64,000 bases of DNA from an uncultured Candidatus Saccharibacteria bacterium (GCA_964398775.1 CAYNND010000003.1:3879-67878); one strand, 5' to 3'. Shown: positions 38,370 through 61,359, counted from the first letter of the stretch. Notes: generated from the letters alone by a model not told the origin. Numbers and translations: made by a program.

Positions 38370-39479
38370 CTATTTATTCATTGGCATGACTACATAGAGA
38401 AAGGAGCCGTCGGAAACACCTTGAATAATAAGTGGCTTACTTGGGCCAGCAAATGACAACTTGACACTATCAACTGGAATCGATTGAAAACAATCAATCA
38501 TATACTTTTGATTGAAGTTTAGAGAAAGTGACTGACCTTCAATTGTTGCTGTAATACCCTCACTCATCTCACCCGTTGTTGAGTTTTTTGATGTACATAC
38601 AACACTTTTTTCCTCAAGCTGCACAGCAATAGTGACTTGCTTTGAGGCATCTGAAACTACTGCAGCTTTTTTTAACACACCAACAACATCTTCTTTTAAG
38701 GCAATACATTCTGTGTGGAATTGCTTCGGAATAATTTTTCTATATTCAGGAAATGTACCTGATGTTAGACGTGAAGAAAGTGTTATTGTGCCGGTTGTGA
38801 ATACACACATATCCTCATCTACAATACACGAGATTGAATCATTTTTTGAATTCTGAAGAAAAGATATTATCTCTTGTGCATTTTTTACTGGTATAAGTGT
38901 GGTTGGGAATTCATCTTCAGATATAAATGGAATTTTTTTTTCAGCAAGACGGAAAGAGTCAGTAGCCACAAAGACTAACGAAGAACCTTCTGTATACACC
39001 AAAACACTTGCAAGTTCAGGTTTTATTGTTGAGTTTGATGCTGCATATACCACCGATTGAACCCCTTGTATAAACAACTCTTTCGGAAGAGAATATTGTA
39101 TCTTAGATTGAGCTTGTGGAAGTGGAGGGAAATCTTGCGTAGGAAGTAGTGTGAGTTGCACAGTACCTTTTTTTGTTTGAATTGAGCATGTGGTGTTTGT
39201 GAATGACAACACAACCTCACCAGTATGTAGTAGTTTTACTACATCATAAAAAACACGAGCTGGAATAACAAACGAAGTGTCCTGTTGTATATCTTCTGAT
39301 TCGCCTGGTGTACGAACTTCAACACTCATCTCTATGTTTGTTGCTTGAAATATAACTAAGTGTGGCTTTACAGAGACACGAACACCTTGCAAGGTTTGAT
39401 TTTGATGATTTGGTTGCGCAACTCTTGTTATATCTGAGAGTGCTTGTTCTAAGTGTTCTTTTTGAATATATATTTTCAT
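38370..39479 (-). CDS. dnaN: DNA polymerase III beta sliding clamp
   Basis: 369 aa. Three-domain clamp length. Position immediately downstream of dnaA. N-terminal MKIYIQKEHLEQALSDITRV resembles DnaN starts. Confidence 0.85.
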   Translation of the reverse strand: MKIYIQKEHLEQALSDITRVAQPNHQNQTLQGVRVSVKPHLVIFQATNIEMSVEVRTPGESEDIQQDTSFVIPARVFYDVVKLLHTGEVVLSFTNTTCSIQTKKGTVQLTLLPTQDFPPLPQAQSKIQYSLPKELFIQGVQSVVYAASNSTIKPELASVLVYTEGSSLVFVATDSFRLAEKKIPFISEDEFPTTLIPVKNAQEIISFLQNSKNDSISCIVDEDMCVFTTGTITLSSRLTSGTFPEYRKIIPKQFHTECIALKEDVVGVLKKAAVVSDASKQVTIAVQLEEKSVVCTSKNSTTGEMSEGITATIEGQSLSLNFNQKYMIDCFQSIPVDSVKLSFAGPSKPLIIQGVSDGSFLYVVMPMNK

Positions 39480-39645
39480 ATGTCTTATATTAAGGAGTTT
39501 TTATGTGGATATGTGATTATATGAATCTATACATAGTTTTTTTATACACACATTTTGATGAATATATATCTATATTCTTACTATATTTTCTAAGAAAGAA
39601 CAATCCAACAATCTACGCACACACTATACACATCTATCCCCACAC
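39480..39645. promoter_or_regulatory. AT-rich putative DNA-unwinding element plus DnaA-box-like motifs between dnaA and dnaN (part of oriC)
   Basis: The 166-bp intergenic region is strongly AT-rich (ATATATATCTATATTCTTACTATATTTTC). It carries ATGTGGATAT at 39503-39512 (8/9 to TGTGGATAA). Degenerate boxes CTATCCCCA and CTTATCCCC lie at 39634-39653. Confidence 0.5.
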
Positions 39646-41150: not shown

Positions 41151-41286
41151 CATGAAACGAACGTACCAGCCAAAAAAGCGCAAACGAGCGCGAACACACG
41201 GCTTTCTCAAGCGAACAAAAACAGCTTCAGGAAAGCGCGTCTTGAAGGCCCGACGCCGCAAGGGGCGAGCGAAGCTCTCAGCGTAA
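41151..41286 (+). CDS. rpmH: 50S ribosomal protein L34 with apparent +1 frameshift (extra A in the A6 run 41216-41221); effectively a pseudogene as written
   Basis: Frame 1 from ATG 41151 gives [23 protein letters not shown]. After the A6 run the L34 C-terminus [21 protein letters not shown]-stop continues in the +1 frame to TAA 41284-41286. An A5 run would restore a canonical 44-aa L34. Confidence 0.6.
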
Positions 41287-42344: not shown

Positions 42345-42794
42345 ATGAACGAAGTACGTACTATTGTATCTGACATACTAAAAACATTCGGAGTCGAAGC
42401 TCAGTTTGAGGAGCGTTCGTTTGCGGAGCAGCCGGTGCTTGCGATTACAGTTGCAGATGGGCAACTACTTATCGGTTCACAAGGTGACCGTCTCCGTGCG
42501 CTCAACACCCTTGTTCGTATGATTGCTGAAAAAAGAGGTGTAACTGAAAGGTTTACTGTAGATATAAATAACTATCAACACGATGCTGTAGTGCAGTTAC
42601 AAAATACTGCTAAAACACTTGCTGAGCGCGCTCGCACACTAAAATATGATGTTGAGTTAAACCCAATGCGCCCATTCGAGCGCATGATTGTACATGCGGC
42701 GCTCTCCACAGAGCCTCACATCAAAACAGAGTCAATTGGCGAAGGTAGAGATCGCCGTATTGTAATCAAATACATAGAAGCACCAGCTGCTTAA
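42345..42794 (+). CDS. jag: Jag/KhpB-like RNA-binding protein (KH + R3H domains)
   Basis: 149 aa. C-terminal R3H motif ELNPMRPFERMIVHAAL...GEGRDRRIVI. Located after yidC. Confidence 0.7.
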   Translation: MNEVRTIVSDILKTFGVEAQFEERSFAEQPVLAITVADGQLLIGSQGDRLRALNTLVRMIAEKRGVTERFTVDINNYQHDAVVQLQNTAKTLAERARTLKYDVELNPMRPFERMIVHAALSTEPHIKTESIGEGRDRRIVIKYIEAPAA

Positions 42795-43231
42795 GGGCAA
42801 CCATTTGGGTCAGTGCAGGTGGTGCCGCCACCGGTAGTACCACCACCTCGTTGTGTCTGCGGGAGCTGCTCAAGGTTCACATTTAAGTTGAGCAAATCTG
42901 GGTTGATTTGATTAAATATAACGTATGTAGAGAGTAGCATAATGAGCCCAAGGAGTGCGTTCTGCATTCTATCTTTTGACTCACCCATCTGGACGGCACC
43001 TGACTCCGTCATCATGTACACTATTCCACCGTACACAAATTGCGCCACGGCAACAACAGCACCTATTGAGATGGTCATTTTAAATGCGGCATTCACAAAG
43101 GCGCCAAGGTTGTCATATGATTCATAGATTGATACACCACCAATCAATAGCGAATCACCAAGAAGTCCCTTAAAGCCCGCTGCTTGGGCTGCCTGGTGAG
43201 CTATGAAGCTTATGTCATTCAATAAATCCAT
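42791..43231 (-). CDS. Candidate VirB2/TrbC-like pilin (two-TM hairpin), first gene of the T4SS-like cluster
   Basis: Start taken at the internal ATG 43231 (MDLLND...). The track ORF extends to 43276 and overlaps its upstream neighbour. Two hydrophobic segments (ISIGAVVAVAQFVYGGIVYMM and ALLGLIMLLSTYVIF) separated by a short polar loop. Gly/Thr-rich tail. Confidence 0.3.
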   Translation of the reverse strand: MDLLNDISFIAHQAAQAAGFKGLLGDSLLIGGVSIYESYDNLGAFVNAAFKMTISIGAVVAVAQFVYGGIVYMMTESGAVQMGESKDRMQNALLGLIMLLSTYVIFNQINPDLLNLNVNLEQLPQTQRGGGTTGGGTTCTDPNGCP

Positions 43232-43232
43232 A

Positions 43233-44603
43233 TTATTCAAGAGATAGTCCCCACAGTGTAGCAGTTGTTTTATCAATGAATAGTAGTAGTTTTCCGTCAG
43301 CTGAATAGTATGCTGCTGTCACGTCGAGACCATCAGGGCTTCCCTTCACTGTTTCAATCACAACACTCTCTTCGCCGGTGCGAGGATTAATTTTTACAAT
43401 GGTATCAGCATATATACGTGCACCCTGCATCCACATATCTGGGTATGACAACCCAATGGTATCAACAGGAATTCCACAGTATAAGTATTCCTGTGTAGAC
43501 CACGTACATTTTTCTGGGAACACTGCTCGCTTCAGTCGTACTGGCTTACCATTCTTTTGGTAGATAAAGGATGTGTAACCTTCAGAAGAGCTCAGTGTCT
43601 TCAGAATGAATGCAGCAGTACCACTCTCGAGGCTTGTTATGCCAGGCTCGTCACCAAAGACTTTTTCCAAAGTGTTTTTTGTAAGTGATACTCTGTACAC
43701 ATAACCAGGCATTCCAAGTGATGGGCGCTGATTCACCAGTATGTGTGTAGTGCCCTCCCCGCTCCATGCGATGTTCCATCCATGAAGTGGTGATTTCCAT
43801 ACTCGCTTTGTCCGCTCACCCTTGAGGTTTGTTGTCGCCACACTCAGAGTACCATCCTCCTGTATTGTTGAAAAAAGAATAGTCTCCCCACGCACCAGCA
43901 TCGATTGAATGTTTACTGGAAGATATGATCCGATAGTGCTTGCCTGCTCACCTTCCTTTTTCTCACTAAGCTCAGAAACAGGAGTGCTGAGGGTTAGTAT
44001 AGAGTCATCGGTATCAAGGTGCTGGAGGACAACATGGGTGCCTTTCTCGGTAAAGAATGCTTTCTGTACCCCAAGAATAGTGCTATTTGTAACTCGCTCT
44101 ACTTTCAAAGTAGCAACAGGTATGTCTATGATATTACCGCGTTGACGTTCTGCGAGGCGAATAATTTGCTCTTTCTTTTCATTTTCAAACATCGTAAAGC
44201 CTGCCACTGGCCCCTCATACAGTTTATACAGCTGCACTCCTTTTTTTATGGCAGGGTTTTTTGTTGTGTCAGTTCCGTTTACTGGAGGCTCTCCAGTTGG
44301 GTTCTGTCCCGTGTCGCTACCCCCTGTTTTTGTCGCGTCCGTGCTTTGCTCATCGGTGTTGTTTTCTACAGTCTCCCCATCAGTTCCTGTCTTCTCTTTC
44401 AGTGTTTTTTCGGTAATTTCATCGTTGTTAAAAACCCCTAAGTCAGAACCACCAGCACCAGGTACTACCAATGGGTCAAATGTTTTAGTCCGTGAGCCTT
44501 CAACTGAACGCTTCGTTAAGTATGCATACCACACTGCAAGCGCAGTAGCCGCAAGGAGGATTATCAAGGCAAGTGATGCGTATAGTGTGTTCTTGTTGTT
44601 CAT
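43233..44603 (-). CDS. Hypothetical secreted/membrane-anchored protein (T4SS-like cluster)
   Basis: 456 aa. N-terminal anchor LYASLALIILLAATALAVWYAYL. T/G/E-rich low-complexity segment. No recognised family. Confidence 0.4.
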   Translation of the reverse strand: MNNKNTLYASLALIILLAATALAVWYAYLTKRSVEGSRTKTFDPLVVPGAGGSDLGVFNNDEITEKTLKEKTGTDGETVENNTDEQSTDATKTGGSDTGQNPTGEPPVNGTDTTKNPAIKKGVQLYKLYEGPVAGFTMFENEKKEQIIRLAERQRGNIIDIPVATLKVERVTNSTILGVQKAFFTEKGTHVVLQHLDTDDSILTLSTPVSELSEKKEGEQASTIGSYLPVNIQSMLVRGETILFSTIQEDGTLSVATTNLKGERTKRVWKSPLHGWNIAWSGEGTTHILVNQRPSLGMPGYVYRVSLTKNTLEKVFGDEPGITSLESGTAAFILKTLSSSEGYTSFIYQKNGKPVRLKRAVFPEKCTWSTQEYLYCGIPVDTIGLSYPDMWMQGARIYADTIVKINPRTGEESVVIETVKGSPDGLDVTAAYYSADGKLLLFIDKTTATLWGLSLE

Positions 44604-45562
44604 ATACCAAAGAGTGATGATTCGGTTGTCGTACCGATGCGTGTTTTGATTGTTGCGTCTTGCAGTAGCTTGCTTCCATGATTTACATCAACTGTGACAA
44701 TGCCTGCAGGCAGGCGAGGTGTGTATGTTGCTCTCCCTTGTGGCTCTACAGCAACCTCTCCGGTCGCACTCTTCCAATCGAACCGTACCTTGGAAAGGTT
44801 CGTGCCATCTATGTGGTACGGAATCAGCCGAAGTGTTGTGACACCATCAAGTCCTTTCATGAATCCAACAACTGTATTTGTCCAGAGTCCAACAAGTGTT
44901 TTTTGCTGGTACATACGCAAAACTATCGGAGTTGGGCGTATGCGAATACCATTTCCACCGACGTATTCATTATTTAGATTTTTTACTTCAACACTGATGA
45001 GTGTGTCATCTCCAAAAGCTGGCATCTGTATTTGCACTGTTTGTTTACCAAAGCCTGACTGTTTCCCAAGCAGTGTTCCGTTCTGGTACCATGAATATAT
45101 GAGCGTATCGCTCGAGCCTAGGTTAGTGTGAGGAACGGCTGAAACAGTCACTCGTCCACCAGCAGCAACGAGCGCACGGCCACTGTAAAAAGGAGGTGTA
45201 TATGAAGCTCCTTCCCAGAGTAAGTCAACATCTGAGGGTTGCAGTAGCTGTGAAAGCTTCATTTCCGTACCATCTCTTTCAACGACAGTTACGTCGAGTG
45301 TGCTTGTCGTGCGCTCCGTAAGGGTAATTTCTGTTTCAGTAACACCAATTCCCTGGCTCAACACAACACCATTCAGTTTCCATACAACAAGTGCGGTAGA
45401 TATATCAATCGCCGGACTTTTGAGTTCTGCGGCGATGCGAGTGTTGAGCTGTAATAGCGGCGGATTGAATGTAACACTAAGAGTTTTTTCTACCTGAGCA
45501 TATGCAGGACTACTTACCCCCATCAAGACTGCTATGAAAAGTATTGCGTACAATGCGCGCAT
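44600..45562 (-). CDS. Hypothetical secreted protein (T4SS-like cluster)
   Basis: 320 aa. Signal peptide MRALYAILFIAVLMGVSSPAYA. No recognised family. Confidence 0.4.
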   Translation of the reverse strand: MRALYAILFIAVLMGVSSPAYAQVEKTLSVTFNPPLLQLNTRIAAELKSPAIDISTALVVWKLNGVVLSQGIGVTETEITLTERTTSTLDVTVVERDGTEMKLSQLLQPSDVDLLWEGASYTPPFYSGRALVAAGGRVTVSAVPHTNLGSSDTLIYSWYQNGTLLGKQSGFGKQTVQIQMPAFGDDTLISVEVKNLNNEYVGGNGIRIRPTPIVLRMYQQKTLVGLWTNTVVGFMKGLDGVTTLRLIPYHIDGTNLSKVRFDWKSATGEVAVEPQGRATYTPRLPAGIVTVDVNHGSKLLQDATIKTRIGTTTESSLFGI

Positions 45563-45639
45563 CTGTCTATTGTAGCAGGTTTTTAGATTCGCGTAGCCGT
45601 GGATGTCAAAAACACATTCCCCACACTTTCTGCGTTGTG

Positions 45640-47487
45640 TTACTTCAATATGGCATCATCTCCCGATGCTGATTCTGCAGCCTCCAGGTCTTTTTTCGCT
45701 TTTCTGATAGCCAAGATTTGAGATGGGTCTGAGGTTATTATTTGGTCTTCAGTGTAGGAAGCGATAACTTTAATTGCAACGTGCTTCAAGCCGGCGAAGA
45801 AGATCCCCTCCCCCACATCTGATTCAAGGAGAAGATATTTCTCTTCATCTGAAAGCTTGAAGGTTTCTTGCACAAGGTCAATCGATGTTGGTGACTGTCG
45901 CAGCAAAATTTGAATTGAAGAGTTGGTGAGCATCGCTTTACCATAGGGTGATTGCAAAAAGTCACCAACGTCTTGAGTAATTGTCGCTAGTCCAAGATAA
46001 TATTTACGGCCACGTTTTGCGATTCCATACAAGAATGAAGCCGTATCTTCAGACTTCATCATCCACCAAGCCTCATCAATCACAAGGAGTCGTTTTCTGA
46101 GCTCTTTTCTGACCATGTTCCATATGTGGTGCGTCACAATATACATCGCGACCGGCTTAAGCTCGTCTTCCATGTCTCGGATTGAGAACACAACCAACCG
46201 CTTGTTCATATCAACGTTTGTTGGTTTGTTGATGAACCCAGACCAAGTTCCGTGAGTGTACTTAGAAAGTCTCTGCACAAGTGACTCAGAGCCTTCCATG
46301 CCGGAGAGTACGAGCTCAAAGTCTGACAGAAGCGGCGGCTCGATGTTGGCAAAGTCTGACTGTTCATTGATATCCTTAAGGGCGTACGTTTCTGTGATTG
46401 CCTTATCGATAATCGCGTCTTCTTCAGGGGTTAACCCACCCAACATGATGCGAAAGAGTCCAACAAGTGTGATGATGTTTGAACGGAGCACGTCGGCCGG
46501 GTTCTCGTCTTCTCGCGGCACTGGAAGATCAAAAGGATTGATGTGGTTTTCGGACGAGAGTGTGATGTTAAAGTAACGTCCACCAGTAGTTTCAGCCAAG
46601 TACTCATATTCACGTTCAGGGTCAATGACAATAACGTCCGCGTCAAACATCAATGAACGAAGAATCTCTAACTTCGTAAAGTATGATTTACCAGATCCCG
46701 ACTTGGCAAAGAGTACCGAGTTATAGTTTTCGAGAGAAAATCTATCAAAAAGCACAAGAGATGAGTTGTGTCTATTGATACCGTAGAGGATACCCCTGTC
46801 AGACGTAAGGTCGAACGATATAAATGGAAACGTAGAAGAGAGTGGCTCAGAATTGAGCTTCGAGTGAACAGCAAGTTGGTCATCAGCAATCGGCATCACA
46901 CTCTTAAATCCTTGTTCTTGTTGGAACAGTGTTGGCTTTATGTATACCAGTCGCGCCTCGAGAATTGAGCGTACTTCAGTCTCAGCCTTGTCGAGCTCTT
47001 CTTCAGTTTGCCCGTATATGGTGATATACAACCCAACCTCAAACATTTTTTCCTGTGCTTGCTGGAGTCGGTCACGGAGATACTCAAGATCAGAATAGGC
47101 TGTATCAAGCTGCGGGTCACGCACGAGCCCCTTCTCCTCTCTAATTTGTATCTGACTTTCTACCTCCGCAACTCTTTTTTGGAATTGACGAAGGATTGCA
47201 GTAGTGTCGACTGGGTGAATATGCATTGCAGCATCAAACATCTTGTCGAGGTTGATGATAGGCGCAAACCAACCAGTTGTAAGGAAGCGCGGGTATGAAA
47301 TGACAAAAAATGTTCGTGCTATCTTATCTCCAATGTTGAGTTGTTTCGGGGTAATCTGAAGAGCAGATGGTGCAAGGATATCTTGCAGTTCGAGTACGCC
47401 TCGTGCGTAAATTTCCTGAGGGAGTACCGGCACAACAGGTCGCTCTGCTGTTTCATTGCCCTTCGAGAAAAGTGAAAAAAGACCCAT
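45640..47487 (-). CDS. VirB4/TrbE/PrgJ-family conjugation ATPase, C-terminal ~615 aa (ATPase domain)
   Basis: Walker A LFAKSGSGKSYFTKLEI. DPEREY motif. Walker B LLVIDEAWWMM (the DEAW of VirB4). RGRKYYLGLATITQ motif. Confidence 0.7.
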   Translation of the reverse strand: MGLFSLFSKGNETAERPVVPVLPQEIYARGVLELQDILAPSALQITPKQLNIGDKIARTFFVISYPRFLTTGWFAPIINLDKMFDAAMHIHPVDTTAILRQFQKRVAEVESQIQIREEKGLVRDPQLDTAYSDLEYLRDRLQQAQEKMFEVGLYITIYGQTEEELDKAETEVRSILEARLVYIKPTLFQQEQGFKSVMPIADDQLAVHSKLNSEPLSSTFPFISFDLTSDRGILYGINRHNSSLVLFDRFSLENYNSVLFAKSGSGKSYFTKLEILRSLMFDADVIVIDPEREYEYLAETTGGRYFNITLSSENHINPFDLPVPREDENPADVLRSNIITLVGLFRIMLGGLTPEEDAIIDKAITETYALKDINEQSDFANIEPPLLSDFELVLSGMEGSESLVQRLSKYTHGTWSGFINKPTNVDMNKRLVVFSIRDMEDELKPVAMYIVTHHIWNMVRKELRKRLLVIDEAWWMMKSEDTASFLYGIAKRGRKYYLGLATITQDVGDFLQSPYGKAMLTNSSIQILLRQSPTSIDLVQETFKLSDEEKYLLLESDVGEGIFFAGLKHVAIKVIASYTEDQIITSDPSQILAIRKAKKDLEAAESASGDDAILK

Positions 47488-47491
47488 AGTA

Positions 47492-48160
47492 TTATTGGTT
47501 ATTTGCGCCCTTCATTGGGTTGTCCTGCTCGCCTGGATTAAAGATGCGATAGAGAAGCTCGATGACCTCTTCCGTGCCAAGTTGTACAGAGCGGATACCG
47601 GTGCGGACAAGTCCTTGTTGTACAATTGATATTCGCTGCTCTATCTGTGAAATGTTTTCTTCGAAAGCGCTTTTCCCTCCTTCCACTTTCTCACTCGCAC
47701 GTTGAGATTTTCCAAATGGTAAGGGTATTTTTGATAGTGGGCCACTTTCAAGTGCTGCATTTGGTGGCAAATATGGCACCACAACAAAGAAGTGTTTTGT
47801 CATAATATTTGCCGCCTCTGTAAAGCTTCTGATGAAGTTGATGTACTCTCGTATTTGAATACGCATGAGTTCATCAAGAGTATTTTTCTGCGCTTCTTCG
47901 AGTGTCATGAGGTATGGGCGAATATCGAGTTTACGAGATTGTATGAAAATTTGGATATGGAAGTCGAGCGAGTTGAGGAGGTTTTGAAATTGCATCAAGA
48001 ATGCGTTCTGCTCGTCATCAGACTTCAAAGCAAAGTTGAGTGATGAACACATAAGTACTGCTTTCATGCTGCCATCATTCATGATGATAACCCCATCACG
48101 AACTTCCTTAACTGGAACAAAGTCTTGTGAAGGTGTTGCGTTTCGTGCGTCTACTACCAT
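47492..48160 (-). CDS. VirB4/PrgJ N-terminal-domain-like protein (222 aa), likely the detached N-terminus of the downstream VirB4 ATPase
   Basis: FVPVKEVRDGVIIMNDGSMKAVLMCSSLNFALKSDDEQNAFLMQFQNLLNSLDFHIQIFIQSRKLDI matches the conserved N-terminal pattern of VirB4/TcpF/PrgJ proteins. Stop TAA, then 4 nt, then the ATG of the 615-aa ORF. 222+615 = 837 aa, about the size of a VirB4. Confidence 0.5.
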   Translation of the reverse strand: MVVDARNATPSQDFVPVKEVRDGVIIMNDGSMKAVLMCSSLNFALKSDDEQNAFLMQFQNLLNSLDFHIQIFIQSRKLDIRPYLMTLEEAQKNTLDELMRIQIREYINFIRSFTEAANIMTKHFFVVVPYLPPNAALESGPLSKIPLPFGKSQRASEKVEGGKSAFEENISQIEQRISIVQQGLVRTGIRSVQLGTEEVIELLYRIFNPGEQDNPMKGANNQ

Positions 48161-48163
48161 AGC

Positions 48164-48601
48164 TTATCGTCTTAGTTTTGTTACTCCTTTCCCTGCGTCA
48201 TCCACATACTCATTGATATCAAGCGACCATGATATGTCCTTCAATTTACTATCTGAAAGTGAGGGGAGTTCCGAATTCTTTTTTGCAGCCATATCGTCTT
48301 TTTTCTCAGATTCCTTCACTTTATCTACGTGCTTCCACAAAAACAGTTTACCACGAATTGAGTAGTAAAATGCACTTTCAAGTACAACCAAGAATGGTCG
48401 GTCATTGATTTTATAAAAAGCAAGGGCGAGCGAAAAGCCCATGACAGGGAGCATCGCAACGAGCGCAATCTTTTGCGGGAGCAGTGAGTACACAAAGTAG
48501 GAAAGACCAGCGCCACCAACAATAAAAATGAATTGTTTGAACGTGAATGGTCCAAAAATTTTATCTTCCACCTCGATGAATTGTGGAACAGAGAATTGCA
48601 T
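48164..48601 (-). CDS. VirB3/PrgI-like small membrane protein
   Basis: 145 aa. Two TM segments (FKQFIFIVGGAGLSYFVYSL and IALVAMLPVMGFSLALAF) near the N-terminus. Sits immediately upstream of VirB4, as VirB3/PrgI does. Confidence 0.4.
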   Translation of the reverse strand: MQFSVPQFIEVEDKIFGPFTFKQFIFIVGGAGLSYFVYSLLPQKIALVAMLPVMGFSLALAFYKINDRPFLVVLESAFYYSIRGKLFLWKHVDKVKESEKKDDMAAKKNSELPSLSDSKLKDISWSLDINEYVDDAGKGVTKLRR

Positions 48602-48653
48602 ATGCTCAGTATATCAGGTGAGGGTCATATTGCGTCTACTGTATACACAGAGC

Positions 48654-49220
48654 TTACAGTGCCGCTTCTCGGTACGGATCGTTCTGTATCGTGGTTCTCT
48701 GCGCCTCAGAATCGCCAGCTGTGTTTAGTGGTTTGTTTTGTGCAGTATCTGCTTGGCCATTGAGTCTCCGTTTGATTATGTCAGTGAGTGCCTTTGTTGA
48801 ACTTTCAGCAGCAGCTCCTGCTGGGGTTGCTACACCCATCTCGTCCATTACTTTCTGTTGTTCGATGGGTACCACTGGAACTTTTCTGCCCGCCTTTTCT
48901 GCTGCTATGGTGTCCTGAAGTTGTTTGTGTATCGGTTCAAAGATAATCTCAACAGCAGCGTTGTTGATCTGTACCGCTTCTTCTCTGCTGAGCCCTACGT
49001 GCTGCACTATGTTGTCGGGCAAATCTTCCGGTGCAGTGATACCAAATAGCGCATACGTAATTTCATTCTCAAGAAGTGTCCATTTATCAAGATGGATTTT
49101 ATGTTTTTCTGCGAGTGTGCGCATTTTCTGTTCGAGCTCAGATGATAGTATTGCACGCTGCACAACTGCGGGCAGTGCGTTAAATGCATCTATAAGGATT
49201 TGCTGGGTAGTTGATTCCAT
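48654..49220 (-). CDS. Hypothetical soluble protein (T4SS-like cluster)
   Basis: 188-aa ORF with no TM and no recognisable motifs. Confidence 0.4.
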   Translation of the reverse strand: MESTTQQILIDAFNALPAVVQRAILSSELEQKMRTLAEKHKIHLDKWTLLENEITYALFGITAPEDLPDNIVQHVGLSREEAVQINNAAVEIIFEPIHKQLQDTIAAEKAGRKVPVVPIEQQKVMDEMGVATPAGAAAESSTKALTDIIKRRLNGQADTAQNKPLNTAGDSEAQRTTIQNDPYREAAL

Positions 49221-49231
49221 AGTTTTAAATT

Positions 49232-51481
49232 TTAGTGCGCTGCGTGGTCATCAGCTTTTGCAGCAGGTGCTGCTGGTGCAGCAGGTGCTGCTGGTGCTGC
49301 TGGGATGTTCTGTGCAAGTGTCTGGCCAAGTTGTGCTGTTCGCTGACTTTCACGCTGCATTCTCGCAATTTCTTGTGGAGATAGCGCCGCTCGAGCCATT
49401 CCGGCCTTCATCGCATCATCAGATAATTTTAGTTTATTATCCGTAACAAATTGCTTAAATGCTGACACAGAAGCTGTTTTTGCCTGCTCTCTTTCTGTTG
49501 CAAGTCGAATTTCGCGCGCCTGCTTCTTATTTTTTTCAACGTCAATCTGAATTTCTCGGTGCTCCTTTTCTTTCTGCTCTCTTTTCGCAGATGCCTCAGA
49601 AAGCTCGTCTCTGATGCGTTTGATATTTGCGTTCGCCTGTCTCATAGTAGCATCTGCGTCAGCGAGACTCTTTTCAACAGCTTTTTGCTTTACACCACCA
49701 GGATCAGAATTTGGGTTTTTCTGCATCTCAGCTTTGTATTCTTCAAGGGCTTTTGCAGCCGCTGCGTGGTTTTCGGTTGCCTGGGTAACAAGAGTCTCAG
49801 CCTTAGATACTTCTGTAGTCTTTGCCTGCACTGTCTCTTTAAGCCCATCTATTGCTTGCTTAAGCTCAGTAGATTTGACCTCTTTTGCGTTATGTTCCTC
49901 GAGAAATGCCGCACCTTCTTTCTTTTGCTTCTCAGCAACTTGTGCTTTTTGGAAGTCAGCCATACGCTCTCCCGTAGCTTTGTCTGTAGCACGCTTCGTG
50001 TCGATTGTTTTTTTAAGTGTTTCCTTTCCAGCTTTTCCAGTTTGGATACCAAGCTTTTGCAAGGCTTTCATAACAGCCGCGTCTCGGAAGTCACCACTAG
50101 TGTTGAGACGAGATTTGTATTTCTCAAGTTTTTCTCGTGCTTTCTCTTTCGACTCCGGTGTGTCATGAGGGCCATCGTGTGCCGCTTCAAGATTTTTCAG
50201 TTGTCGCTCAGCAAATGCAAGTCTACCTTTTCGCACACTGGCGGCTGCGCTGCCAAATGCTGCACCGGTTACCATCCCAAAGCCTCCTGAGAGCTTTGAT
50301 TTAACATCCGTTCCAAACATTTGGTTGCCTTTTTTTGCAAGCATGTCAGCAACTTTTACAGCAACAACAAAGAGTGTAACCATCACTGCATAGCGACCAA
50401 GTGCCCCGCCTGCATTTGTGATTGTCGGGTCAAATATACCTTCGACGCGCAGCCCAGGCGCAGGGCTTTTTGCAATGGCGTCCATAATCTGAATCACCGT
50501 CCAGAGCATAAGGAGGAGTAGTGGAGCAAAAAAAGCGTTTGCGAGTAGCGACGTCCTCCATTCGTTAAAATATTTTGAGAATGATGGGATGATGAGTGCA
50601 GCAGTTGCAAGCGAAGATGTTACCATGACGAGAATAAGCATTACAGCACGGACTGTAAGTAGCCATGCACAATAGAAGAATACAAACGCAGAAATCAAAA
50701 ATATAATTGCGATACCAATCGATGTAACAAGAAGTAGCCCCGGGCTACCTGGTCGCTCAGATTTTAATTTATCAACCAACTTACTCCAATCATTCAATTC
50801 CGTTATACCGAAGGCAGTTGATATTCTTTGTGATATGTTCGCTTGTCCTGAAGTAATGCCCGTTGCATCGGTTATTGCTGAACCCCCTACCCCAGCTATC
50901 CCTCGGTAGAACTGATAGGCAACAAAGTTTGAAACATCAATCACTGCCATTGAGAAGAAGAGACTGAAGTTCATGAAGAGTGCCACGAGAATCGCACGCA
51001 CAGCATGCTGCTTTATGCTGTACTCATGGTTATTAAGGATTATATTTATTGCGATAAATATAAAGAAGCCTATGAGTACAATCTGCGACAAATCGCGAAA
51101 TACTACCCAGATCCTTTGTATTGCCTCTATAACACCCCAAAACTGAAGTGTTCCAGTAAAGTTTGCCGCAAACGCCCAAATAGTATAGTCAAAAAGTACA
51201 CCTGCAAGTGCTAGAAACGTTGCTGCGAGTGTGATAAGTGCTGCCCCTATCCATGCTGCAACAGTCTCAATACCACTTTTTATCCAACTCCCACCTCCGT
51301 ACCAAGCAGCAATAGAGCCGAGAACTAGCCCACCTAAAATAAGCGGTGGCGCAGCCTCAGCTTTTTCTACGCTGATTGCTAGCGGGCTTGAGAGGGATGT
51401 CGTATCAATTGTGACTGAAAGTGGCGCGAGCATGACGCATAGCGATATCACAACCGAAATAGCTCGTCTCCACATACCCAC
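49232..51481 (-). CDS. VirB6/TrbL-like polytopic membrane protein with long C-terminal coiled-coil and PAA repeats
   Basis: 749 aa. At least 7 hydrophobic helices in the first ~420 aa. C-terminal K/E/A-rich coiled-coil. Tail PAAPAAPAAPAAPAAKADDHAAH is encoded by an 18-bp tandem DNA repeat at 49261-49304. Confidence 0.45.
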   Translation of the reverse strand: MGMWRRAISVVISLCVMLAPLSVTIDTTSLSSPLAISVEKAEAAPPLILGGLVLGSIAAWYGGGSWIKSGIETVAAWIGAALITLAATFLALAGVLFDYTIWAFAANFTGTLQFWGVIEAIQRIWVVFRDLSQIVLIGFFIFIAINIILNNHEYSIKQHAVRAILVALFMNFSLFFSMAVIDVSNFVAYQFYRGIAGVGGSAITDATGITSGQANISQRISTAFGITELNDWSKLVDKLKSERPGSPGLLLVTSIGIAIIFLISAFVFFYCAWLLTVRAVMLILVMVTSSLATAALIIPSFSKYFNEWRTSLLANAFFAPLLLLMLWTVIQIMDAIAKSPAPGLRVEGIFDPTITNAGGALGRYAVMVTLFVVAVKVADMLAKKGNQMFGTDVKSKLSGGFGMVTGAAFGSAAASVRKGRLAFAERQLKNLEAAHDGPHDTPESKEKAREKLEKYKSRLNTSGDFRDAAVMKALQKLGIQTGKAGKETLKKTIDTKRATDKATGERMADFQKAQVAEKQKKEGAAFLEEHNAKEVKSTELKQAIDGLKETVQAKTTEVSKAETLVTQATENHAAAAKALEEYKAEMQKNPNSDPGGVKQKAVEKSLADADATMRQANANIKRIRDELSEASAKREQKEKEHREIQIDVEKNKKQAREIRLATEREQAKTASVSAFKQFVTDNKLKLSDDAMKAGMARAALSPQEIARMQRESQRTAQLGQTLAQNIPAAPAAPAAPAAPAAKADDHAAH

Positions 51482-51539
51482 AGTATATATGAAAAAACTA
51501 CTTTATCTTAGGCTCAAGAAAGTGAATGTGTATTGCCAG

Positions 51540-53321
51540 CTACAGCTTTAAATCTTGCCACTTTTCTGCCTTGCACCAGCTCGCAGTCCATGAATTTTGT
51601 GTTCGCTCGACAAGGTTCTGCAATATGTCCTTCAATTGGCTTTGTTTATCGCGTGCATTCGATACATGTGATGAATTGTGGAGCTTGCCTGCGTTAACAA
51701 GTTTTTCAAGCTGACCAATTACAAACTGTGCTGTTGCGGGGCTGCTGTCATTTTTCAACATATTCTCGAGTCCCTTGAGTACAGAAAGGGCACTATCCGA
51801 TGACTTGAGGTTTTCTGCGAATACTCTGCGAATCGGCTCTATGTCGTCCTTTATCACCTTGATTGAACGCTCGTTGGTCTTAAGCAAGGTAACGCTCTTT
51901 GTTACACCGCTTAGCTTAGCCGTTATCTTATATCGCTTTTTTGGACTCGCCTCGGTGCTGCCGGGGTCATCAGAAATATCCACAGTCACATCTGCAGTAC
52001 ATGATCCCATGTTGCCATCACCGGAGCAGACCTCATCCTCCACTTGTTTTTTCAAATCTTTCTTCGCCTGGTCAAGCATGTCGTCAAAGCACTTGTCCTC
52101 TCTTTGGACTAGAGTTGCCATTGTCGTATCAATAAGAGAAAGAGTAGTTTTAATTACTGCATTGTAGTCACCTTCAGTTTGGAGAGCTTTTTGCAGGGCA
52201 TCTTTACCGACATTTGTCGTCTCTCCTCGTGCGCGACCAAAGGCATCATCGACTGCACGGTCAAGGTATGAAGCGCCACTAGCGTTGTTTGTAGTTGATT
52301 GTAAGCCGCCAAACCCAGAGAGTACTTCAGTTTGGAGGTTAGTGATGAATGAGCCAAGGAGTTCGTCGATACTATCTGCCTGTTCAGTTTGGCGATGTCC
52401 AGTCTGCACCAAGAAGCTTGTCATATCGGCTATCACCTTTCCTGGGGTAACGATCTGACAGTCTTCCTCGTATCGGCCATTACCGACGGGCACTTGCTTA
52501 CATTCACGGTCAGAAAGGAAACCATTGCCCCAATCAAGCTCCTTTGCGAGCCTTCGTTGCTCCTCATCGATTGTCACTGTCGCTGTATCACGCAGATTCA
52601 TAAAAGCAGAGAGTTCATTGTTCCCTTCTTCAAATGACGATATAAAATTTCCCCACCCACTGTTTTCAAGGTCACCTCTCATCAGTGATGTATATTGCTG
52701 CTCAGTACCATTAAAACTACACGCATATGCAAGTTCTGGTTTTCTGGTTTTATTTACATAGTCTTGCACCAAATTTCGCTTCACACGTTCTCGGTACGGC
52801 GCACACATTTTTTGCAGTGATTCATGTTCCATGAATTTCTCCATAACTTCATCACGGAGTTGGGCTTGAAGCGCGCGCGGGTTCTGTGCATACTTTGCCT
52901 GGCCTTGTCTCCCTTCGTTTATTTGGCGAAGCGCTGCACGGGTGATTCCTGAAACTATGGCTTCACGCTGACGTATATTGAGTCCATCAAGTACACAAAA
53001 CTTGTTGACTAAAATGAATGTATTGAGTGCAATTGCCTCTTCAGAGACTGGGACAAATGTTCCCTGTGCGTGCTGCATTCCCACTGGACCCACTTCGCCA
53101 ATACCCTTACATCCATAGATGCCGTTGCGTACAAACTCATATGCGCTGGAGGTATTTCCTTCAGAATCTTTTACATTCAAGTTTTTCAAATCATTTTGGT
53201 ACTCCTTCAAAAAGTTTTCTATATCCTCGCTCGATTTTGTTTTTGTTTGACCATATGCAAATACACCCATAAACATGATTATGATTCCTAGAATCGACGC
53301 GATGTATCTGTGTCTTCTCAT
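51540..53321 (-). CDS. Hypothetical secreted protein, 593 aa (T4SS-like cluster)
   Basis: Signal/anchor IASILGIIIMFMGVFAYG. Several Cys. No recognised family. Confidence 0.4.
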   Translation of the reverse strand: MRRHRYIASILGIIIMFMGVFAYGQTKTKSSEDIENFLKEYQNDLKNLNVKDSEGNTSSAYEFVRNGIYGCKGIGEVGPVGMQHAQGTFVPVSEEAIALNTFILVNKFCVLDGLNIRQREAIVSGITRAALRQINEGRQGQAKYAQNPRALQAQLRDEVMEKFMEHESLQKMCAPYRERVKRNLVQDYVNKTRKPELAYACSFNGTEQQYTSLMRGDLENSGWGNFISSFEEGNNELSAFMNLRDTATVTIDEEQRRLAKELDWGNGFLSDRECKQVPVGNGRYEEDCQIVTPGKVIADMTSFLVQTGHRQTEQADSIDELLGSFITNLQTEVLSGFGGLQSTTNNASGASYLDRAVDDAFGRARGETTNVGKDALQKALQTEGDYNAVIKTTLSLIDTTMATLVQREDKCFDDMLDQAKKDLKKQVEDEVCSGDGNMGSCTADVTVDISDDPGSTEASPKKRYKITAKLSGVTKSVTLLKTNERSIKVIKDDIEPIRRVFAENLKSSDSALSVLKGLENMLKNDSSPATAQFVIGQLEKLVNAGKLHNSSHVSNARDKQSQLKDILQNLVERTQNSWTASWCKAEKWQDLKL

Positions 53322-53324
53322 AAA

Positions 53325-54275
53325 TTAAATAGTGTCAATATCATTAACTGCAAAATAGACACGAAGTGCCTCTTGTGCCATTTTAAGCTGTCGTTCAGCT
53401 TTTCCAAAATGTCCAAGTGCGCGGTAGCTGCCGATAATATCGTCGTACCCCTTGCTCATTCCCTCGAGTGCTGCACTTGTGTACATGAGGCCATTTATGA
53501 AATTGACATGATTTTCAACTGCATCGGTCGGCGTTTCAACATCAAGTAGCTTTTTTGCAACTACGACATATATTTTTGAGGCTTTGTTTAAGGCATCGAA
53601 GTCTTTTGGCTCATTTTTATCAACAGCACGAGCATATGTTTGCAGTTCATACTCAGGAATTTCCTTCAGCGGCTCAAGTGCTTTCTGAACTTGTGCACGA
53701 TATGTGAGTATGTGTTGTTTGGTTGAGTTAGTTTGACTGGCTATCTCTGCTGCTGTGTGTTGTGTGTACTTAAGCTCGCTCAGTGTTTTGATTGTGCTTT
53801 TGATGATAGCTTCCTTCTCTTTCTGCGTTACTTCACCGCTATTTGCTTGTTCCTGAAGGACATATGCCCCCACAAGTCTGTCAGCGGTTATTTCTGTAGT
53901 TGTTGTGCCAGCGGGGACGTTTCCATTTACTGCTTCAATAAAGCCTTTTTGGCGCTCCTTCTTCATTTCCTCAATCTCTGCTTTATCGTCAACTCCGTCG
54001 CCATCCGTATCTTTTTCCGATACGCTAGTCCCGTATAAGATTTCTTGCCAGTCCGGAGCTCCATCATTGTCAGCATCACCAGAGTCAGTTGGTGCAGGTT
54101 GCATATTTTTTGCCACTTCTGTTTGCGCCGCGACATCTTTCTTTTGAAAGTATGCAAAGATGCTACTCATGCTGATGACGGTGACTCCAGCTATAAGCGC
54201 GAGGACTACTTTTTGATGTTCTGACGCAAAGTGCATGGAGATAGTATAGCAGCCAATGCGCATTTCTTCGCACAA
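53325..54275 (-). CDS. Hypothetical membrane-anchored protein with acidic Ca-binding-like DxDxDG repeats
   Basis: 316 aa. TM VVLALIAGVTVISMSSIFAYF. DADNDGAPDWQE and DTDGDGVDDKAE segments resemble thrombospondin type-3 / calcium-binding loops. Confidence 0.4.
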   Translation of the reverse strand: MCEEMRIGCYTISMHFASEHQKVVLALIAGVTVISMSSIFAYFQKKDVAAQTEVAKNMQPAPTDSGDADNDGAPDWQEILYGTSVSEKDTDGDGVDDKAEIEEMKKERQKGFIEAVNGNVPAGTTTTEITADRLVGAYVLQEQANSGEVTQKEKEAIIKSTIKTLSELKYTQHTAAEIASQTNSTKQHILTYRAQVQKALEPLKEIPEYELQTYARAVDKNEPKDFDALNKASKIYVVVAKKLLDVETPTDAVENHVNFINGLMYTSAALEGMSKGYDDIIGSYRALGHFGKAERQLKMAQEALRVYFAVNDIDTI

Positions 54276-54299
54276 TAATGTGAGTAATTCTAGATGTGC

Positions 54300-55172
54300 C
54301 TACTGCCCAGTAACTGGTGGAGTAAATATCCCGCCCGGTTCATTTTCAGAAAATACAACGCCCTGGTCTTTAAACAAAAGAGCAAAAGTAATGAAGCTTG
54401 TTGCAAAGCCCTCTACGTTTGTATTGTAGGTGAGCATATTTTCATATGTACTCGAGTCGTCCGTCGAACGTTTCAAGACGCGTAAACCATCAGCAACACC
54501 TCTATACCCCGCGCTCAATGCATTTTTCTCCACTGAAAACACGTCAGGTCCATCAATCGCGTCAATATTTTTAGCAAGAATGTCGTAATCACTCGCAAGC
54601 TCATCTATATATGCTTTTCCTTCTGAGTCACGTGTCTGTGTAAACGCTCCAAGTTTGTCCGCTTGTTTGCTGTGAGCTAGTGTCAGCATCTGAATTTTCG
54701 TGCCTACAGCATTGCCAAATGCTCGGATTGCTTTCTTCGTCGCATCCTCCTCCTTGGGGGTATCCCAGGGGGTGAGCGTAATCTTTGTATTTGATTTCCA
54801 CATTTCACCAACGTTTACATACTCCGGTGTCGCAGTTGTCGTTTTTCCTGGCTGTTTTTTCGGAGTTTTTTCGTCTTCAGGCACTGTCTTAGGCTTGTAT
54901 TTTTCTGCCACTCCTTTGTCTTTTATAATTCCGTTCTCCCATGTATCACCAAATGCTTCCCTCTCAGATAATGAGCTGTCTTCGGGTCTCCATGGTGTGT
55001 ATTCACTTGTCGGAGTGTTTCCACCTACAATACCTCCGTCTTCGAATGTAAGTTCAGTATTCTTCTGTTCACTGAATTGCAATACTGCATATACAGTGAC
55101 CACTAGTATGGATGTCGCTGCTATACCTAAGTATCCAACCCATGTTCTCATAGTGGATAGTATATCTGACAA
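54300..55172 (-). CDS. Hypothetical membrane-anchored protein (last gene of T4SS-like cluster)
   Basis: 290 aa. N-terminal TM GYLGIAATSILVVTVYAVLQF. No recognised family. Confidence 0.4.
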   Translation of the reverse strand: MSDILSTMRTWVGYLGIAATSILVVTVYAVLQFSEQKNTELTFEDGGIVGGNTPTSEYTPWRPEDSSLSEREAFGDTWENGIIKDKGVAEKYKPKTVPEDEKTPKKQPGKTTTATPEYVNVGEMWKSNTKITLTPWDTPKEEDATKKAIRAFGNAVGTKIQMLTLAHSKQADKLGAFTQTRDSEGKAYIDELASDYDILAKNIDAIDGPDVFSVEKNALSAGYRGVADGLRVLKRSTDDSSTYENMLTYNTNVEGFATSFITFALLFKDQGVVFSENEPGGIFTPPVTGQ

Positions 55173-55195
55173 TTATCTATGCATGGTACACTATA

Positions 55196-55540
55196 TTGAT
55201 GAAGCAGTGCATATCTCGCCTTCTCGTTACTCTGTGCGTAGTCTCTACTTGCGTGACGGCAATGCCGCAGAAAACTGAGGCAGTTGTCTACTTTGGCGGG
55301 TCAATCGGTAGAATTATTTTTTGCATTAACAACGTTGTGTATGCAAACCTCGGAGCACCTCGTGGCGGTCCCTACCTCTGGTCACCAAAAGTAACAAAGA
55401 CATACCAATTTGGTCCACCGCGACGTTCTGGTCAGTGGCTCCTTGGTGCTGCGGGGCCAACATATTTCTGCATTGAATCAGTGCTTCCACTCATTGTGCA
55501 TCCCGGACTCCTCATTCTATTTATGGGCAGTAGCCAGTAA
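55196..55540 (+). CDS. Small secreted hydrophobic protein (114 aa), divergent from the T4SS-like cluster; second pilin-like candidate
   Basis: Signal peptide MMKQCISRLLVTLCVVSTCVTAMP. Two further hydrophobic stretches, the second C-terminal (VLPLIVHPGLLILFMG). Confidence 0.3.
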   Translation: MMKQCISRLLVTLCVVSTCVTAMPQKTEAVVYFGGSIGRIIFCINNVVYANLGAPRGGPYLWSPKVTKTYQFGPPRRSGQWLLGAAGPTYFCIESVLPLIVHPGLLILFMGSSQ

Positions 55541-55658: not shown

Positions 55659-56474
55659 CTATTTTCTCTTGAGTATCTGTGCAATACGAACCCACTGTTC
55701 ACAAGAAACATCTTCGCCGCGAATTGTATCAGTGAGGTCGCATGATTGTAGTGCGCTATCTATAGATGTTTGCGTGTATAGAGCTCGCAGGTTTCCTTTT
55801 AGTTGTTTTCTACGTGCAGCAAACCCAGCCTTTACTGCTGTAAAAAAATCTAATTCATCAAGTTCTTGAAATGCATTTTTGTGTATTGATCCAATATGTA
55901 GTATTGCTGAATCTACTGAAGGGGGTGGACTAAATGCACCAGCAGGAACGGTATCTATATATTGAGGTGTTCCGTATACTTTCACAGATAAAGAAAGAAT
56001 ACTTTCCTTTGGATCTCTCGCAATACGCTCTGCAACTTCTCGCTGCACAAGGAGTGTCATGCTGAGTGGCTGTGGTTCAATTGTAAGAAATTGTCTGATG
56101 ATTTCACCGGTAATGTAGTATGGAATATTTGCAATAACTTTGTATCGCTCACCAGCGCACAACGCCTCAAGCGTATCAGAGTCAAGTGCCCGAACATCGC
56201 CTGTAATCAGCACTAAACGTCCAGAACTAATCTCTGCACTGAAGCGCTCCGTTAGTACTGCTACCATATCCGCATCTTTTTCTATTGCAAGAACTCGAGC
56301 GCCTGTTGCAAGTAGTGGAGCAGTGAGTGCACCTCTTCCTGGGCCAATCTCGAGAACTGTGTCTTTTGTGTTTAACGAACCTGCAGTAACGATTTGTTTC
56401 AGTGCTTTTTCTGAAGTAAGGAAATGCTGCCCAAGACTTTTCTTTGCGTATACCATACTTATAGTATGTACCAC
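55659..56474 (-). CDS. rsmA: 16S rRNA (adenine1518/1519-N6)-dimethyltransferase
   Basis: 271 aa. KSLGQHFLTSEKALKQIV N-terminus. SAM-binding VLEIGPGRGALT. NIPYYIT motif of the KsgA/Dim1 family. Confidence 0.85.
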   Translation of the reverse strand: MVHTISMVYAKKSLGQHFLTSEKALKQIVTAGSLNTKDTVLEIGPGRGALTAPLLATGARVLAIEKDADMVAVLTERFSAEISSGRLVLITGDVRALDSDTLEALCAGERYKVIANIPYYITGEIIRQFLTIEPQPLSMTLLVQREVAERIARDPKESILSLSVKVYGTPQYIDTVPAGAFSPPPSVDSAILHIGSIHKNAFQELDELDFFTAVKAGFAARRKQLKGNLRALYTQTSIDSALQSCDLTDTIRGEDVSCEQWVRIAQILKRK

Positions 56475-60375: not shown

Positions 60376-61359
60376 TTGTGTTTTGTAGTCGCAGCGCTTC
60401 CCCAACGCTCAGATGCTGCGATACTCAGTAAGATTTTGAGTGTTTTTAATGACGAGCCTATTGTGTATGAATCAGGTGAGGAGTATACATCTCAAACCAT
60501 CCCACTCCCTAAATCTAATAGAAATATTGACCCAAGTGGTGTCGGCGGAGGAGATATAACAGTCATGGGCTCAGCCCTTGTCTCGGATATGGGGCCTGCA
60601 GGTATCATCACTGACCTCACTGAGGGTACAAAGAACGGTGAAATTACCGTATATGTCGTACAAAAAGGTGATACTATCGAAGGAATTGCGAAGCAGTTCA
60701 ATGTCTCTAAAAATACAATTCGTTGGGCAAACGACCTGAAGAGTAATACTATAAAAATAGGTCAAAAGCTCGTCATTCTCCCAGTCTCTGGTATACGTTA
60801 TACAGTTAAACGAGGAGGTACTGTTCGAGATATCGTTAAGAAGTACGGTGGAGATATCGAAGAAGTTGCTTCATATAACGGAGTTGATGCTGATGAGGAG
60901 CTTGCGGCAGGCACTGAGGTTATCGTTCCACACGGTGAAATACCTGATGAACCAAAGAAATCAATAGCACGCAAGCCCGGAAAAGTTGTCGGTAAGGATG
61001 CACCTCGATACGCTGGCTTCTACACTCACCCTCTTGCGGGTCTCGGTGTCCGTACGCAAGGTCTTCATGGATATAATGCTGTAGATATCGGTGTGCCCGT
61101 TGGAACCCCAGTTGTTGCTGCGGCGGGAGGTGAAGTAATTCTTTCAAAGCCGCTTGCGTGGAATGGAGGCTATGGGTCATATATTGCGGTCAGACACAGC
61201 AATGGAACACAGACGCTCTATGCGCACCTCTCTCAAACATCAGTCCGTGTAGGCGACACTGTAGAACAGGGTGATCTGCTCGGCTACTCAGGAAACTCAG
61301 GGAAATCATCAGGTCCGCATCTGCACTTTGAGGTTCGTGGAGCGCAAAACCCATTCTAA
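60376..61359 (+). CDS. LysM-LysM-M23 (lysostaphin-like) peptidoglycan endopeptidase
   Basis: Two LysM repeats (VYVVQKGDTIEGIAKQFNVSKNTIRWANDL and YTVKRGGTVRDIVKKYGGDIEEVASYNGV). M23 motifs HxxxD region (GYNAVDIGVPVGTPV) and HLHFEV. The start codon is uncertain (TTG at 60376 is the first in-frame candidate). Confidence 0.8.
   Translation: MCFVVAALPQRSDAAILSKILSVFNDEPIVYESGEEYTSQTIPLPKSNRNIDPSGVGGGDITVMGSALVSDMGPAGIITDLTEGTKNGEITVYVVQKGDTIEGIAKQFNVSKNTIRWANDLKSNTIKIGQKLVILPVSGIRYTVKRGGTVRDIVKKYGGDIEEVASYNGVDADEELAAGTEVIVPHGEIPDEPKKSIARKPGKVVGKDAPRYAGFYTHPLAGLGVRTQGLHGYNAVDIGVPVGTPVVAAAGGEVILSKPLAWNGGYGSYIAVRHSNGTQTLYAHLSQTSVRVGDTVEQGDLLGYSGNSGKSSGPHLHFEVRGAQNPF

Follow-up and report, generated by a model that had tools for sequence, protein, structure and literature searches.

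Gene content of the jag–ksgA interval

The DNA considered here, hereafter the window, is a stretch of 64,000 nucleotides (nt) deposited as part of an uncultured Candidatus Saccharibacteria bacterium genome (GCA_964398775.1, CAYNND010000003.1:3879-67878), and the subject of this study is a block of genes at 42791-55540 that resembles a type IV secretion system (T4SS). The block comprises 11 open reading frames (ORFs) on the minus strand and one divergent ORF on the plus strand; a preliminary description of the same sequence had recognized the minus-strand block correctly, although it had counted ten genes. On the left the conserved boundary is jag/KhpB (42345-42794, plus strand; R3H domain, PF01424 at 5.6e-15), which is convergent with a pilin-like gene (42791-43231/43276, minus strand) and overlaps it by the 4 nt already reported, and on the right it is ksgA/rsmA (55659-56474, minus strand; PF00398 at 2.4e-48), which has the same orientation as the T4SS genes. 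Read from the pilin side, the minus-strand ORFs encode the pilin-like protein, proteins of 456 and 320 amino acids (aa), a VirB4 of 615 aa, a protein of 222 aa, a PrgI of 145 aa, a protein of 188 aa, a VirB6-like protein of 749 aa, and proteins of 593, 316 and 290 aa. All 11 are intact and closely coupled, and because the distances between them range only from -4 to 77 nt, the minus-strand block reads as a single operon, in which the first gene lies at 54300-55172 and the last is the pilin gene, ending 4 nt inside jag. Scans for promoters and terminators gave counts at chance level. The features named earlier from the translations, i.e. a protein with two transmembrane (TM) segments, the motifs GSGKS and DEAW, a coiled coil and a (PAA)n tail, were all recovered, and so was the divergent small secreted protein (114 aa; 55196-55540, plus strand).

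The 615-aa protein (45640-47487, minus strand) corresponds to the C-terminal two-thirds of a VirB4-type ATPase, with GSGKS as Walker A and DEAW as Walker B motif. It matches PF19044 at 4e-27 and the NCBIfam profile NF045971 ('VirB4-like conjugal transfer ATPase, CD1110 family') with 369 bits against a cutoff of 325, the latter match spanning only positions 185-733 of the 752 in the profile. The 222-aa protein (47492-48160, minus strand) aligns with positions 102-233 of VirB4_plasma at 3e-13, with positions 2-114 of the CD1110 profile at 3e-4 and with TrsD at 1e-3, and has a match to PF26593 (TraC-like) on record; judged by these matches, it is a TrsD-like protein supplying the N-terminal domain missing from the 615-aa VirB4. 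The split VirB4 that had been proposed from the sequence is hence backed by profiles in both its halves.

Three further proteins were assigned to T4SS families. The small PrgI/VirB3-like membrane protein of 145 aa (48164-48601, minus strand) matches PF12666 at 9.5e-11, with 42.5 bits against a cutoff of 27, which bears out the earlier identification, and is present in 76 of 80 related loci from Paceibacteria (described below). The 749-aa protein (49232-51481, minus strand) is an extended polytopic membrane protein; its C-terminal region is a long coiled coil, and its tail (PAAPAAPAAPAAPAA, (PAA)n) is encoded by a 9-nt repeat at 49252-49303. The match of the protein to TrbL/VirB6 (PF04610; 3e-3, 17.7 bits) is under the cutoff of 25.9, 5 of 25 orthologues match TrbL at an E-value below 0.01 (best 8e-5), and the family alignment contains an invariant NFS...D..N motif. 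Of the earlier account of this protein, the polytopic topology, the coiled coil and the PAA tail hold, whereas the assignment to VirB6 is a weak one, with which the position of the gene and, by eye, the hydrophobic profile and topology agree. The pilin-like gene (42791-43276, minus strand) is a 161-aa ORF, of which the likely start at 43231 yields 146 aa (MDLLND...), as in the gene call. The product is a putative VirB2-like T4SS pilin, with a two-TM hairpin, visible in the translation as had been noted, and a Gly/Thr-rich C-terminal tail. The window protein itself scores just under the PF18895 cutoff (5.7e-5, 23.5 bits against 26.6), and the family assignment is supported mainly by its orthologues, 23 of 25 of which match PF18895 (best 2.4e-10) and 3 of 25 TrbC/VirB2 (PF04956). 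Most orthologues carry a hydrophobic signal peptide and a 'Y-PL-PLPG' motif, whereas the pilin of the window's lineage has neither; within the family, the length of the C-terminal tail lies anywhere between some 20 and over 400 residues.

Conservation of the locus and the question of acquisition

Related loci were collected by a VirB4-anchored scan with one genome per species, giving a set of 80 from Kaiser-, Nomura-, Taylor-, Campbell-, Wolfe- and Adlerbacteria and other Paceibacteria. Gene order and orientation (uvrD-ksgA-[T4SS]-jag-yidC-rnpA-dnaA-dnaN) are identical in all 80, the full series being uvrD> ksgA> [small gene<] ... VirB6> g07> PrgI> TrsD> VirB4> triple-Ig> propeller> pilin> jag< yidC< rnpA< dnaA> dnaN>, with arrowheads for orientation. 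Since anchoring on VirB4 biases such a set, a sample of metagenome contigs was also anchored on jag and restricted to those extending at least 5 kb beyond it (n=22); every one of the 22 carries VirB4, 2.8-5.0 kb beyond jag and in the same convergent arrangement. None of these contigs showed an empty jag-ksgA site. It was also observed that the label 'uncultured Candidatus Saccharibacteria bacterium' is attached to many public records in which a locus of this Paceibacteria type occurs (L001 and many third-party annotation loci); it looks like a taxonomic mislabel, because among named organisms Kaiserbacteria and other Parcubacteria are the closest.

The genes of the locus differ strongly in their rate of divergence. 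When relatives are compared with the window, the median identity comes to 77% for VirB4, 56% for TrsD and 49% for PrgI, compared with 52% for DnaA, 51% for UvrD, 47% for KsgA and 35% for DnaN among the housekeeping proteins and with 24-36% for the extracytoplasmic proteins of the cluster. Such a pattern, with a VirB4 motor better conserved than DnaA and with surface parts that change fast, indicates strong purifying selection on the motor, and a constrained cytoplasmic motor combined with diverging surface parts would fit a machine that engages another cell. VirB4 identity is 74-98% across the 80 Paceibacteria genomes and co-varies with that of DnaA across loci (Spearman rho 0.65, p 3e-8), whereas the nearest plasmid VirB4s, from Actinobacteria and Firmicutes plasmids and annotated as CD1110 family, are only 29-37% identical to that of the window (the best of 3285 plasmid hits being at most 37%). 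These identity levels strongly suggest that the window VirB4 belongs to the Patescibacteria clade.

The preliminary description had read the block as acquired, and the possibility to be weighed is that a conjugative or mobilizable element (an integrative and conjugative element, ICE, or a remnant of one) has recently integrated between jag and ksgA by the origin. In its favour are the homology of the core genes with conjugation genes of monoderms and the direction of the block, which is opposite to that of the rpmH-jag operon; and an ancient horizontal origin from monoderms has been suggested for the whole clade (Quinonero-Coronel et al. 2025, Microb Genom, PMC12102498). However, these genes occupy an identical site in relatives, in the same order and orientation and with no sign of insertion, in 80/80 genomes and in the 22/22 contigs of the unbiased sample, and on this ground acquisition is refuted; the search for relatives lacking the insert in the ksgA-jag interval brought up none. 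The composition is likewise ordinary: the GC content of the cluster is 0.450, and 0.413 at third codon positions (GC3), against 0.469 and 0.384 in the rest of the window, and the codon-usage distances of its individual genes are inside the range of other window genes, so that comparison with the flanks does not make the cluster an outlier. The window has tRNA genes only at 782 and 10765, and none at the borders of the block; att-like repeats flanking it, whether direct or inverted, were not found, and the scanned ORFs of the visible 64 kb contain no integrase, relaxase or VirD4/type IV coupling protein (T4CP) domain, in line with what had been observed before. The Pfam scan covered the ORFs of the T4SS cluster and the other greedy non-overlapping window ORFs of at least 300 aa, apart from 60376-61359 (327 aa), which looks LysM/M23-like by eye; for the PBP gene (34533-37073), dnaA and dnaN, recorded Pfam hits were relied on. 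Given in addition that VirB4 is so much closer to its relatives within the class than to plasmid proteins, and that its divergence tracks that of DnaA, we regard a recent integration as highly improbable. The block is very probably a Patescibacteria chromosomal T4SS, encoded by an inherited 11-gene operon that is fixed between jag and ksgA beside dnaA.

The direction of transcription had been taken as a further sign of acquisition, on the view that the block occupies the lagging strand. Orientation says nothing on this matter, because ksgA and uvrD share it and because it is conserved across the class. With regard to replication, the plus strand encodes rpmH (41152-41286), rnpA, yidC and jag, and the minus strand dnaA and dnaN. 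DnaA-box matches are not enriched over the window as a whole (16 against 15.6 expected); several DnaA-box-like motifs occur in the AT-rich dnaA-dnaN spacer (39480-39645) and one upstream of dnaA. A local oriC near dnaA is plausible, and with such an origin the T4SS operon would be head-on to replication. Against this, the GC skew at four-fold sites shows no switch at dnaA, being about -0.14 to -0.18 in plus-strand genes and about 0 in minus-strand genes on both sides; minus-strand genes predominate on either side of dnaA, with no leading/lagging switch in gene-strand bias; and the cumulative GC skew is flat or falling across the window, with no sustained rise after dnaA. Pooling those loci of relatives in which both dnaA and yidC are present was uninformative on the strand question. 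On the evidence of 64 kb the block may or may not lie on the lagging strand, and the argument from orientation is weak. A separate observation is that dnaN (38370-39479) is a compositional outlier, with a GC of 0.367 (about 0.47 elsewhere), a GC3 of 0.243 and a high codon-usage distance; no T4SS gene deviates nearly as much.

Relation to published systems and proposed function

Quinonero-Coronel et al. (PMC12102498) surveyed 3,035 Patescibacteria genomes and found VirB4 in 2,417 of them, nearly all of these proteins falling into one monophyletic clade nested in MPF-FATA. In their survey TrsD, VirB3/PrgI, VirB6 and VirB2-like pilins are encoded near virB4, relaxases are rare and the T4CP is usually distant, and the commonest virB4 neighbours in Paceibacteria are dnaA, dnaN, rnpA, ksgA and rpmH. 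The window corresponds to this picture in having a VirB4 with adjacent TrsD-like protein, PrgI/VirB3, candidate VirB6-like protein and VirB2-like pilin, in the chromosomal location with a dnaA/dnaN/rnpA/rpmH/ksgA context and in the lack of a nearby relaxase or T4CP. The lineage of the window has a single leaderless pilin and no pilin array, and nothing essential is different. The locus is thus a typical Paceibacteria copy of an already published, phylum-wide machine, one that almost all of the ultra-small Patescibacteria have beside dnaA, at its published position, and adds no new kind of system; its value in this respect is that it speaks clearly against a mobile element. The other neighbouring genes were left unannotated in that survey, and provisional fold-level notes on those of the window, which could guide structural or interaction studies, are given in the last section.

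A closely comparable system is that of the Saccharibacterium Southlakia epibionticum ML1, in which the T4SS genes SEML1_0006-0019 were found to be essential by transposon sequencing (Wang et al. 2023, Cell, PMC10633639); the T4SS of Saccharibacteria is essential for epibiotic growth, and that of Southlakia comprises pilins and has no recognizable coupling protein or relaxase. It shares with the window the core order VirB6-like-PrgI-[TrsD-position protein]-VirB4, pilins of the PF18895 family, an exported Ig-like protein downstream of VirB4 and a site at the start of the chromosome. In Southlakia there are six divergent pilins encoded on the opposite strand, a pair of VirB6-like proteins, and NTF2-like (VirB8-like) and lysozyme-like proteins next to VirB4, and none of these was recognized in the window cluster. 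The window has instead the propeller protein, the 593-aa helical protein, the pair of 316-aa and 290-aa proteins (g10/g11) and the single leaderless pilin. The same T4SS is treated in a 2025 review (PMC12857230), according to which competence of Southlakia depends on ComEC and cells survive the deletion of comEC but need the T4SS, whose essentiality therefore does not operate through transformation. Our view that the cluster most likely encodes an apparatus for secretion or uptake and not a mobilizable element, which is also what had been supposed from the sequence, agrees with both PMC12102498 and PMC10633639.

These comparisons also bear on whether the block could be a degenerate, non-functional remnant. 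Such a state might be suspected from the division of VirB4 between two ORFs, the missing signal peptide of the window pilin and the failure to detect several canonical subunits (VirB1, VirB8, T4CP). A TrsD-like ORF is present in 79 of the 80 loci, however, and is separate and of a conserved length of about 210-222 aa in most of them; because the related loci share it, the split is real and not the result of decay, and an arrangement of TrsD plus VirB4 is known (PMC12102498). VirB4 is moreover better conserved than DnaA, the 11 ORFs are all intact and tightly coupled, and the homologous genes are essential in Southlakia (PMC10633639), all of which makes degeneration an extremely improbable explanation of the locus.

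As to ancestry, the motor and inner-membrane core, consisting of VirB4 with its separate TrsD-like domain, PrgI/VirB3 and the extended VirB6-like channel protein, derive from monoderm conjugation systems of the MPF-FATA or CD1110 type. The window has in common with these systems (pCF10 Prg/Pcf, pGO1 Trs, CTn2 CD1110-type and pIP501) a VirB4 of the CD1110 family, PrgI, a TrsD of the pGO1 type, the order VirB6-VirB3-VirB4 and the lack of an outer-membrane core complex. The MPF-FATA systems differ in being carried on mobile elements and in having a relaxase, a T4CP, a VirB1 hydrolase, VirB8-like proteins and adhesins instead of pili, whereas in the 64 kb of the window neither a relaxase nor a T4CP is found, the pilin is VirB2-like, the locus is fixed in the chromosome and VirB4 is only 29-37% identical to theirs. 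Some resemblance exists as well to the T4SS of Mycoplasma ICEs (Mbov_0397, VirB4; Mbov_0395, pilin-like), which also belong to wall-reduced monoderms: VirB4_plasma is the best NCBIfam match of the TrsD-like protein (3e-13), and the window pilin weakly matches the Mbov_0395 pilin-like family. Both scores are far under the curated cutoffs (48 against 590 bits for VirB4_plasma and 15.5 against 40 bits for the pilin), and the Mycoplasma elements, unlike the window locus, are mobile and carry transposase/relaxase functions of their own.

From established T4SS biology one would expect VirB4 and TrsD, docked at the single membrane on PrgI and VirB6, to power pilin extraction and substrate passage, while the pilin together with the Ig, propeller and helical proteins would span the wall and contact the host bacterium. 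Conjugation is unlikely, because no relaxase or T4CP is encoded at the locus, and the machine would more likely move proteins or other material across the epibiont-host interface; the literature favours the idea that protein or other cargo is exchanged with the host. The Patescibacteria T4SS is of biological importance and is the only one known to be essential for the growth of its owner.

The cargo might instead be DNA, in a competence-type T4SS that, like ComB of Helicobacter or the archaeal Ced system, imports DNA or nucleotides from the host. The lack of a relaxase and a T4CP at the locus would suit this, as would the reliance of Candidate Phyla Radiation (CPR) bacteria on their hosts for nucleotides, a weak P-loop match to CedB (4e-10) and the co-localization of the T4SS with comF, recG and radA in the class ABY1 (PMC12102498). 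Yet the CedB match covers only about 70 residues, with 38.8 bits against a cutoff of 700, and is not accompanied by a CedA-like match; no competence genes are adjacent, the nearest pilus ATPase being a PilB 10 kb away (31331-33259); and transformation does not account for the essentiality of the Southlakia T4SS (PMC12857230). We consider DNA uptake improbable as the function of the system.

Several points nevertheless weigh against our interpretation of the block as an inherited Patescibacteria T4SS. Both the VirB6 and the pilin of the window are under the Pfam gathering thresholds, and their assignments depend on family-level matches and topology. Neither a VirB8-like (NTF2) protein nor a VirB1-like hydrolase was recognized in the cluster, and the placement of VirB4 in the Patescibacteria clade is taken from identity levels. 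Essentiality has been demonstrated in Saccharimonadia only, and not in Paceibacteria (PMC10633639). Finally, VirD4 homologues are encoded far from virB4 in many genomes (PMC12102498), and a T4CP or relaxase could be present elsewhere in the genome, outside the visible 64 kb.

Accessory proteins and other genes of the window

No Pfam or NCBIfam family was found for any of the accessory genes, and what can be said of their products comes from family profiles and, for the 593-aa and 320-aa proteins, from AlphaFold2 models. The 456-aa protein (43233-44603, minus strand) is membrane-anchored, with an N-terminal TM segment followed by a low-complexity linker; its C-terminal domain probably forms a TolB/PD40-like beta-propeller: TolB is the sole match of the family profile in the PDB (best E-value 2e-3), and 3 of 25 orthologues weakly match PD40. 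Its gene is present in 71 of the 80 loci and overlaps by 4 nt that of the 320-aa protein (44600-45562, minus strand), which is found in 78. The latter protein is secreted, with a signal peptide, and is confidently modelled (pLDDT 84) as three tandem Ig/FnIII-like beta-sandwich domains; Foldseek matches the model to the phage protein Hoc, the S-layer protein SbsB and the repeats of SiiE and RTX adhesins, at 4e-7 to 5e-6. The 188-aa protein (48654-49220, minus strand) is a conserved soluble protein and has an invariant C-terminal DPYRE motif in the alignment; its gene is found in 44 of the 80 loci, in the same position, and the protein has no match in Pfam, NCBIfam or the PDB. For the secreted, Cys-containing protein of 593 aa (51540-53321, minus strand), which is encoded in 45 of the 80 loci, the model is poor (pLDDT 63 overall, about 88 at residues 370-593) and predicts mostly long helices with beta-hairpin inserts; no family matches were obtained, and a Foldseek search of the PDB gave nothing significant (best E-value 0.015).

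The two genes at the start of the operon encode TM-anchored proteins that are paralogous at the family level (hhalign probability 98.3%, E-value 2.5e-14), share a helical C-terminal domain and are unrelated to the 593-aa protein. One of them (53325-54275, minus strand; 316-aa ORF, 303 aa in the gene call) contains in addition TSP3-like, calcium-binding DxDxDG repeats, and its profile matches the Ca-binding repeats of the Bap protein at 3e-5. The other (54300-55172, minus strand; 290-aa ORF, 283 aa in the gene call) has only coiled-coil-type matches in the PDB and is recognizable by tblastn in 12 of the 80 loci. A VirB8-like or VirB5-like identity was considered for both and rejected, since profiles of the PDB returned only Ca-binding repeats and designed coiled coils. 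More generally, no protein of the cluster matched lysozyme, CHAP, M23 or VirB8 by Pfam, NCBIfam or PDB profiles. The divergent Gly/Pro-rich secreted protein of 114 aa has two invariant Cys and no Pfam family match; it is found in 18 loci, where identity is about 50%, and its gene runs against the T4SS genes in 17 of them and along with them in the other (L018). The protein may or may not belong to the T4SS.

One may ask whether the fast-evolving extracytoplasmic proteins that are specific to Paceibacteria, i.e. the anchored TolB-like propeller, the triple-Ig protein, the 593-aa helical protein, the Ca-binding/helical pair and possibly the 114-aa protein, form together with the leaderless pilin a wall-spanning, host-contact module that takes the place of VirB1, VirB8 and the adhesins. 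This is a speculative proposal, and on present evidence we think it rather unlikely to be correct; if it were, a conjugation motor would by means of this module have been adapted to exchanging protein or nutrients with the host cell, and this exchange would be essential.

Some other genes of the window deserve mention. Four consecutive genes at 12470-18082 (minus strand) encode cell-wall-hydrolase-like proteins, namely a Peptidase_M15, a GH114 and two VanY-like proteins, and are followed by six large ORFs with no Pfam match (18086-28718, minus strand; 237-1058 aa); the genes from 12470 to 28718 could be a surface or host-attack block. The PilB/T2SSE-type ATPase at 31331-33259 (plus strand), which contains an MshEN domain, is encoded beside ruvB, 10 kb from the T4SS, and type IV pilus components of this kind have been implicated in host adhesion and competence of CPR bacteria. 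Genes for chorismate synthase, a 598-aa fusion of EPSP synthase and shikimate kinase, and an aminotransferase are located at 1563-2702 and 2970-5858, and the presence of shikimate-pathway genes is unexpected, because CPR genomes are usually described as lacking amino-acid biosynthesis. Lastly, the 505-aa protein encoded at 58541-60058 (plus strand) is an unusual regulator-enzyme fusion, in which an N-terminal XRE-type HTH_3 domain is joined to a full enzyme of the EPSP-synthase fold (MurA-like).

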